Shown here: piece after piece, positions 23,836 to 24,081 of the stretch
Numbering within the stretch: the first letter of the stretch is position 1
How the letters are laid out: each line of letters starts with the position of its first letter
NCBI GenBank assembly: GCA_963771045.1
Contig: CAVYRW010000004.1
Span: 1,664,001 to 1,728,000 of the forward strand
DNA: 64,000 nucleotides
Direction of reading: 5' to 3'
From: Waddliaceae bacterium
GTDB taxonomy: Bacteria; Chlamydiota; Chlamydiia; Chlamydiales; SLFE01
Translations under genes and position numbers: made by a program
The notes under the pieces: generated by a model
Databases searched by the model: none
The model's input: the letters and a program-made list of their open reading frames with translations, nothing else
Told to the model about the DNA's origin: nothing

Positions 23836-23940
23836 AGTCTCAACGTAAAAAAATGACTAAAAGAAAACAAGATTTATATTTATTTTATTTGTCCTTATCT
23901 GATAATATTACTGCGTGACCCACAACTTAGGAGAAAAGAC

Positions 23941-24042
23941 ATGAAAAAAAGAAATAATACCGGAGAGCCGGATATTTTTGCTCAAATTTTAATTCCTTCC
24001 TTCTTTTCTCATTCCCATCATCATACCATCCATATCCTTTAA
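23941..24042 (+). promoter_or_regulatory. Putative His-rich leader peptide (33 aa uORF)
   Basis: AGGAGA RBS; MKKRNNTGEPDIFAQILIPSFFSHSHHHTIHIL*; T-run after the stop; 39 nt before the SSS start. Confidence 0.7.
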
Positions 24043-24081
24043 TTTTTTTTAAGTTTTAATCACATCAACAAAGGCATAATT

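Follow-up and report, generated by a model that had tools for sequence, protein, structure and literature searches.

Histidine leaders have been described in proteobacteria and predicted in some Firmicutes, and the available parts of these accounts mention no chlamydial one (PMC9413887, PMC2965389, PMC4833913). In the enterobacterial hisL attenuator (RF00514), as in the predicted Firmicutes attenuators (PMC9413887, available part), a short upstream open reading frame (uORF) carries histidine codons clustered near its stop codon. hisL heads his-biosynthesis operons, follows a starvation-ON logic and works through a terminator/antiterminator hairpin pair with a U-tract. In tnaC, speFL and cruR, stalled ribosomes mask Rho loading (rut) sites in or beside the uORF, the site lying inside the uORF in cruR, and stalling is caused by a ligand acting on a conserved nascent peptide (PMC12360218, available part). 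The Cys 'ribulon' of mycobacteria consists of polycysteine small ORFs (sORFs) with a cognate codon run before the stop and no terminator, a leader type that recurs in front of several unrelated operons for a single amino acid; these sORFs are leaderless and hide the downstream ribosome-binding site (RBS) in a stable duplex (10.1101/834739; PMC1262725; available parts).

Here we describe a leader from a Waddliaceae bacterium that shares features with all of these systems. Like hisL and the predicted Firmicutes attenuators, it is a short uORF with histidine codons clustered near its stop, and we propose the same starvation-ON logic. The leader type also heads his-biosynthesis operons in other chlamydiae, while in the window (the whole 64,000-nucleotide stretch of DNA that was analysed) it precedes a transporter. 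Unlike hisL, it lies mostly upstream of transporter and racemase genes in organisms in which his genes were not found, has neither the hairpin pair nor an Rfam match, and places its sensing codons in an unstructured tract with more C than G. As in tnaC, speFL and cruR, the ribosome is predicted to shield a rut site, but stalling is predicted from a shortage of charged tRNA at a cognate codon run rather than from a ligand. The mycobacterial sORFs resemble it in having a cognate codon run before the stop without a terminator and in being reused before different operons, whereas the chlamydial leaders are preceded by a Shine-Dalgarno (SD) motif and have no specific duplex between tail and RBS. 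The chlamydial leader is probably a hisL-like sensor joined to a tnaC- or cruR-like switch. A literature search of main texts, mostly outside subscription journals, returned no published description of a chlamydial histidine leader.

The leader and its downstream genes

The locus comprises the following features, in window coordinates:

23853..23880 (+), possible sigma-70-type promoter ATGACT-16-TATATT, a weak 9/12 match and not above chance (1 found versus 2.0 in shuffles)
23929..23933 (+), leader SD motif AGGAG, 7 nt 5′ of the ATG at 23941
23941..24042 (+), leader ORF of 33 codons, peptide MKKRNNTGEPDIFAQILIPSFFSHSHHHTIHIL, with the stop codon TAA at 24040-24042
23960..23971 (+), small hairpin CCGG-AGAG-CCGG in the 5′ half of the leader, seen at this locus
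23981..24052 (+), G-free, C/U-rich, unstructured tract of 72 nt with 20 C, spanning the His codons, the stop codon and T8; predicted Rho loading (rut) site
24010..24033 (+), putative sensing block HSHHHTIH, with five CAT among eight codons
24043..24081 (+), AU-rich spacer of 39 nt with T8 (24043-24050) and the weak RBS AAAGG of the SSS gene
24082..25434 (+), SSS-family symporter of 450 aa (PF00474) with one His (H119), predicted histidine importer; its ATG follows the leader stop by 39 nt
25424..26116 (+), Asp/Glu-family racemase of 230 aa (PF01177), overlapping the end of the SSS gene by 11 nt; Cys89 and Cys192 are invariant

A preliminary description of this DNA had pointed to a strong RBS and a 33-codon uORF with five His in its last ten codons, all CAT, and to a pyrimidine-rich 3′ half with a T-run after the stop; the AGGAG motif, the ORF, the codons (24, 26, 27, 28 and 31, CAT in every case), the G-free tract and T8 bear it out. 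It had also remarked on the single His of the SSS protein, which is H119, and on the lack of a strong terminator hairpin. A scan of the leader region for intrinsic terminators found none (shuffles 0.9), the fold of this region was unremarkable compared with shuffles (z 0.61), and the segment from -27 to +30 around the stop folded with 0.0 kcal/mol. No His-leader match up to an E-value of 5 was obtained in an Rfam scan of the leader, nor did any family come near a gathering score; Phe_leader scored 17.7 bits against a gathering score of 55.

In this genome, 177 small RBS-led ORFs lie upstream of genes, and the leader alone exceeds three His within ten codons. A G-free run alone is not unique to it, since the genome holds 45 such runs of at least 60 nt. 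We found no second ORF of this type, with SD motif and G-poor tail, before hutU or elsewhere in the genome. A separate short ORF at 22537-22821 (+) of the window encodes a signal-like N-terminus followed by tandem IRDPV/ITDP pentapeptide repeats.

Conservation of the leader

The preliminary description had proposed looking for the uORF upstream of orthologous SSS genes. The 212 loci that we examined are most, though not all, of the matches listed, with a further 32 matches outside that list. Setting aside four loci without a usable start and 30 duplicates left 153 SSS orthologs and, as controls, 25 distant SSS paralogs. We defined a leader as an ORF of 8-75 codons that ends at most 350 nt upstream of the gene and has at least four His in its last 14 codons. 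Among the matches listed, such an ORF preceded 68/153 orthologs and 1/25 paralogs, in counts that ignore kinship between genomes that are not independent; in 20 rounds of dinucleotide shuffling, a mean of 0.2 and a maximum of one of the 153 loci qualified. Two other residues were mildly raised in the upstream ORFs (Ser, 42 versus 28.9; Ile, 28 versus 13.5) and no further residue stood out. Trp, Tyr, Phe, Met and Cys were among those unenriched across the 153 loci, and leaders retuned to other amino acids were rejected on this ground.

Leader-bearing loci occur on all main branches of the SSS tree (FastTree), so that the uORF is indeed conserved upstream of orthologous genes, a distribution that fits an old feature with many losses. 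On the other side, the 4-His leader is absent, both directly upstream and at the operon head, from 76/153 orthologs, 18 of which retain 2-3 His near a stop, and one clade near the window SSS protein (mostly family f29) largely lacks it. An SD-like motif lies 5′ of 64/77 family leaders. The leaders span 18-44 aa, with N-termini that appear unrelated as read from lists of unaligned peptides. CAY triplets fall in the ORF frame 438 times, compared with 31 and 27 in the other two frames, a difference that is partly a selection effect. A translation-independent CAU-repeat element for an RNA-binding protein is disfavoured, as the triplets keep to the reading frame of an ORF with an SD motif.

The SSS subfamily was present in 168/400 genomes of the order and a related racemase in 58/400, with genome G096 left unscored in these and the other order-wide counts (hisD, rho). 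The racemase gene adjoins the SSS gene in only 19/153 loci, and the pair is therefore a recurrent but optional module. When 20 loci were extended upstream to the operon head, a histidine leader preceded the racemase gene in 8/8 cases with the order racemase, uncharacterized protein, SSS; one more locus (L225) had a leader before another first gene and none was seen in 11. At the 30 best racemase loci, the leader lay directly upstream in 18, a leader-bearing SSS gene preceded the racemase gene in six and six had none (24/30 leader-linked).

The same leader type also occurs upstream of histidine biosynthesis genes. We found hisD in 4/400 genomes of the order, and a full operon, purH-hisG-hisD-hisC-hisB-hisH-hisF-hisA, in three. 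All three full operons (L240, L241 and L242), two of which are close kin, are headed by the leader, here with a Ser/Phe/Leu-rich middle, a His run, TAA and a T-rich spacer; C/G counts in the last 45 nt are 17/2, 18/5 and 17/0. An NCBIfam check confirmed all eight operon genes in L242, purH, hisG and hisC/B in L241, and purH and hisG in L240. The fourth hisD-like locus is divergent, and no leader was seen there. His-responsive control, as put forward in the preliminary description, gains good support from this shared leader type and from the conservation of the leader. As starvation should switch a biosynthetic operon ON, the presence of the leader type there also suggests a starvation-ON sign.

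Several further observations concern gene content and leader variants. The three his operons begin with purH and contain a hisC-HAD or hisC-HAD-hisB fusion, and their genomes are not among the SSS-positive genomes listed. At L243 (G053:C20) a racemase homolog stands beside hisS/hisZ-like, divergent hisD-like, hisS-like and aromatic amino acid permease genes, with no histidine leader found; at L235 (G047:C11) the SSS, racemase and uncharacterized genes converge on a gene that resembles hisS by eye. In many leader-controlled operons (L216-L223, L253-L275) the racemase gene is followed by one for a protein of 270-330 aa with 0.4% His and no Pfam match. The Chlamydiaceae-type leader has only 1-3 His and a conserved SLSFRYSGRYLH-type ending, with many synonymous differences. 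Leaders of this type lie upstream of f35 SSS orthologs (L177, L178, L182, L184, L186, L188, L187, L064, L179, L190 and L192, of which L064 is named as Chlamydiaceae), and a single base separates their Arg and Tyr codons from CAT. Judged from these codon patterns, selection on the f35 leaders seems to act on the peptide itself, as it would for an arrest peptide.

RNA composition and the proposed switch

Rho loading sites are C-rich, G-poor and unstructured. Along the 77 leaders the C/G ratio rises from ∼0.8 to 2.6, 4.2 and then 14 at -30 to -15 from the stop. As CAT codons themselves raise this ratio, only a test at synonymous sites is independent of His content. T or C occupies 83% of the four-fold degenerate sites in the final 18 codons (n=572), compared with 52% in the 5′ part of the leaders (n=419) and 56% in SSS genes. 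Ser codons in leader tails are TCY in 77% and AGY in 5% of cases (40% and 27% in SSS genes), and His is encoded by CAT in 89%, versus 52% in SSS genes and 61% in the genome. At least 12 C together with at most five G in the last 45 nt characterize 65/77 leaders but only 19/1044 long-ORF ends, and the family leaders are unstructured from -70 to -20. This synonymous pyrimidine bias indicates that the RNA, beyond the peptide, appears to be selected as pyrimidine-rich and G-poor.

Two features of Rho-dependent uORF attenuators are thus present: a C-rich, G-poor, unstructured tract in the uORF, and an encoded Rho. The rho gene is found in this genome and in 194/200 genomes of the order, and activity of chlamydial Rho has been described for the ytg operon (PMC7755916, available part). 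Together, these data suggest a model, to which we give a slightly better than even chance, where the conserved His-codon leader ORF is a starvation-ON attenuator in which stalled ribosomes mask a Rho loading site: upon histidine shortage, ribosomes would stall and queue on the His codons of the leader and cover the C-rich, G-poor tract predicted to load Rho, and transcription would continue into the genes for the predicted histidine importer and the racemase. With sufficient charged tRNA-His, the ribosome would complete the 33 codons and depart, and the freed tract would load Rho, so that transcription would end within the spacer or the first part of the SSS gene.

Two other off-switches are compatible with histidine sensing. 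In one, the leader tail would sequester the downstream RBS, and the control would be one of translation. Masking the tail does ease opening of the downstream RBS by a mean of 2.7 kcal/mol, and by at least 2 in 37/72 cases, but tails swapped between loci perform alike (2.5 kcal/mol, p 0.48), and the duplex of tail and RBS is as stable with shuffled tails as with the native ones (-9.7 kcal/mol for both, p 0.66). Generic pairing between the two may occur. Although a 5-bp CCUUU/AAAGG pairing is possible at the window locus, the gain there is only 1.2 kcal/mol. Anti-SD 4-mers are not enriched relative to expectation (TCCT 0.73, CTCC 0.80 and CCTC 0.56, values that are biased by the CAT repeats), and spacers reach up to 277 nt. 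Translational control, which has a precedent in the mycobacterial Cys leaders that were first predicted to use Rho (PMC1262725) and then demonstrated to be translational in the tested case (10.1101/834739; available parts of both), is in our judgement rather unlikely here. In the other, a hairpin at the stop codon followed by a U-run would act as a weak intrinsic terminator or pause that a stalled ribosome blocks, with no need of an antiterminator. Around the stop, folding is indeed enriched (mean z -1.0 to -1.3), with a weak hairpin in about a third of leaders, and U-rich tracts follow most leader stops. In addition, four inner pairs hold in 117/120 cells across 30 tails of the H[EGK]Hxxx-stop type, with compensatory variants, one of these tails being a chance match in a control locus. 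However, no hairpin forms at the window locus (0.0 kcal/mol), the stems have 4-6 bp, and terminator-like hairpins of -7 kcal/mol with a U-run are reached in only 6/72 leaders. RNA polymerase would, moreover, reach a terminator at the stop codon before the ribosome could clear it. We therefore regard an intrinsic switch as improbable, while the stop-codon hairpin and the conserved stem of one subfamily are beyond what Rho alone explains, and the hairpin may be a pause or a weak terminator. Weighing these points, we lean towards Rho as the off-switch.

The 4-6 bp hairpin just before the stop is encoded by a subfamily of leaders ending in H[EG]HxAH (L010, L109, L110, L113, L141, L253-L273 and others). 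Pairing of the leader tail with the leader's own SD motif carries no weight in our argument; it yields 7.7 kcal/mol at this locus versus 6.2 with swapped tails, and 3.5 versus 2.9 across the family (p 0.02).

Histidine as the probable signal and substrate

Given the codon run, its conservation and its recurrence upstream of his operons, we are confident that the leader senses histidine, and control is very probably ON in histidine starvation. Neither hisG nor hisD was found in this 90.6% complete genome, which encodes hisS, urocanase and hutH. Outside the window, at G000:C4:1291708-1293519 (-), an N-terminal part with GGQ resembles a release factor, ArfB in our reading, and runs in frame into hutH; the last ∼40 codons of hutH lie in another frame, possibly because of assembly indels.

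A protein needed during histidine shortage should avoid His (cognate bias). SSS orthologs contain 0.33% His, whereas the paralogs have 1.26% and a set of 48 membrane-like ORFs from this genome has 1.44%, and the racemase contains 1.3% versus 2.2% genome-wide. One SSS ortholog lies 70 nt behind hisS (L018). The SSS domain of CbrA transports histidine (PMC7918813, available part); the window protein is a stand-alone 450-aa PF00474 member (102 bits versus a gathering score of 22.8), and its likeness to CbrA, as to the other SSS (SLC5) relatives CHT1, PutP and PanF, is at family level. Its regulation, its His depletion, the predicted auxotrophy and the one hisS-linked copy all argue that the SSS protein probably imports histidine.

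Other substrates were considered for this transporter. The protein scores far below the cut-offs of the proline carrier PutP (63.6 versus 515.5) and the pantothenate carrier PanF (64.9 versus 328), and neither substrate is supported. Its closest solved structures are distant choline transporters (E-values of 1e-14 to 1e-11). Choline is nevertheless unsupported: in a weak pairwise alignment, the CHT1 cage residues W62, Y91, W141 and W254 (the cage aromatics named in the available part of PMC11589582) correspond to Q54, V81, F131 and E233, of which Q54 is kept in 95% and E233 in 92% of the 153 orthologs. SSS relatives carry similarity-based annotations as transporters of proline or glucose. Cpn0486 of C. 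pneumoniae, which we do not equate here with the SSS ortholog, appears in the literature as a proline permease (PMC5723314, available part).

The window racemase matches PF01177 and scores below the cut-offs of the named racemase models. As in the PLP-independent aspartate racemase 1jfl, both catalytic-position cysteines are present, and C89 and C192 are kept in 30/30 best loci; unlike the named Asp/Glu racemases, it is usually under a histidine leader. That it serves the recovery of L-histidine, for example from D-histidine or with a partner enzyme, is a guess based on this regulation. The window also encodes, within 50479-53516 (+), a more distantly related Asp/Glu racemase (30% identity), directly after another gene and with no histidine leader seen; the genes that follow it resemble those for an ABC-type binding protein, permease and ATPase.

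Histidine control might also act on a transporter with a different cargo: several amino acids of the basic or aromatic kind, a D-amino acid or a dipeptide that contains His, which together with the racemase would feed the histidine supply. The 19/153 racemase-linked SSS loci would fit such a role, as would the His-poor uncharacterized protein and the VanX-like peptidase that join some operons; the best solved relatives are distant choline transporters. Most leader-bearing SSS genes, however, have no adjacent racemase gene, one copy follows hisS, and the place of the choline cage is taken by Q54 and E233, conserved residues of polar and acidic character; we consider another cargo unlikely. Far less probable is a signal other than histidine supply, with the leader encoding a functional peptide, for example a microprotein that is rich in His and binds metal, or an arrest peptide that senses metal as CruR does. 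Metal could be bound by C-terminal motifs such as HHHSHSC and HEHPAH, the Chlamydiaceae keep a peptide-level motif with few His, and in CruR a metal-sensing uORF contains an intragenic rut site (PMC12360218, available part). Yet the leader heads his-biosynthesis operons, the downstream proteins avoid His, the N-termini of these 18-44 aa peptides appear unrelated, and CAT is preferred in the leaders beyond the 52-61% seen elsewhere; the HEHxAH motif itself is accounted for by the RNA stem.

Chlamydiae draw most of their amino acids from their hosts. To our knowledge, little is known about how they sense amino acid supply, apart from tryptophan. Only one leader peptide, trpL, has been annotated in chlamydiae, and it lacks validation (PMC7755916, available part). 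Leader-peptide attenuation is an old principle; the lineage and the targets are new here, and so, probably, is the off-switch. A joint reading, which we offer tentatively and hold to be possible but doubtful as a whole, would be a phylum-wide chlamydial histidine 'ribulon' under a structure-free attenuator whose sensing His codons are also the Rho loading site. Its targets would be a stand-alone, histidine-specific SSS importer, a histidine-salvage racemase and an acquired his operon, and in the Chlamydiaceae the leader would have turned into a sequence-specific arrest peptide before the transporter ortholog. The leader offers a short, testable example of attenuation without alternative RNA structures. 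It suggests a tie between the racemase family and histidine supply. For a transporter of 168/400 genomes of the order, whose current, similarity-based annotation is that of a carrier of proline or glucose, it provides a likely ligand.
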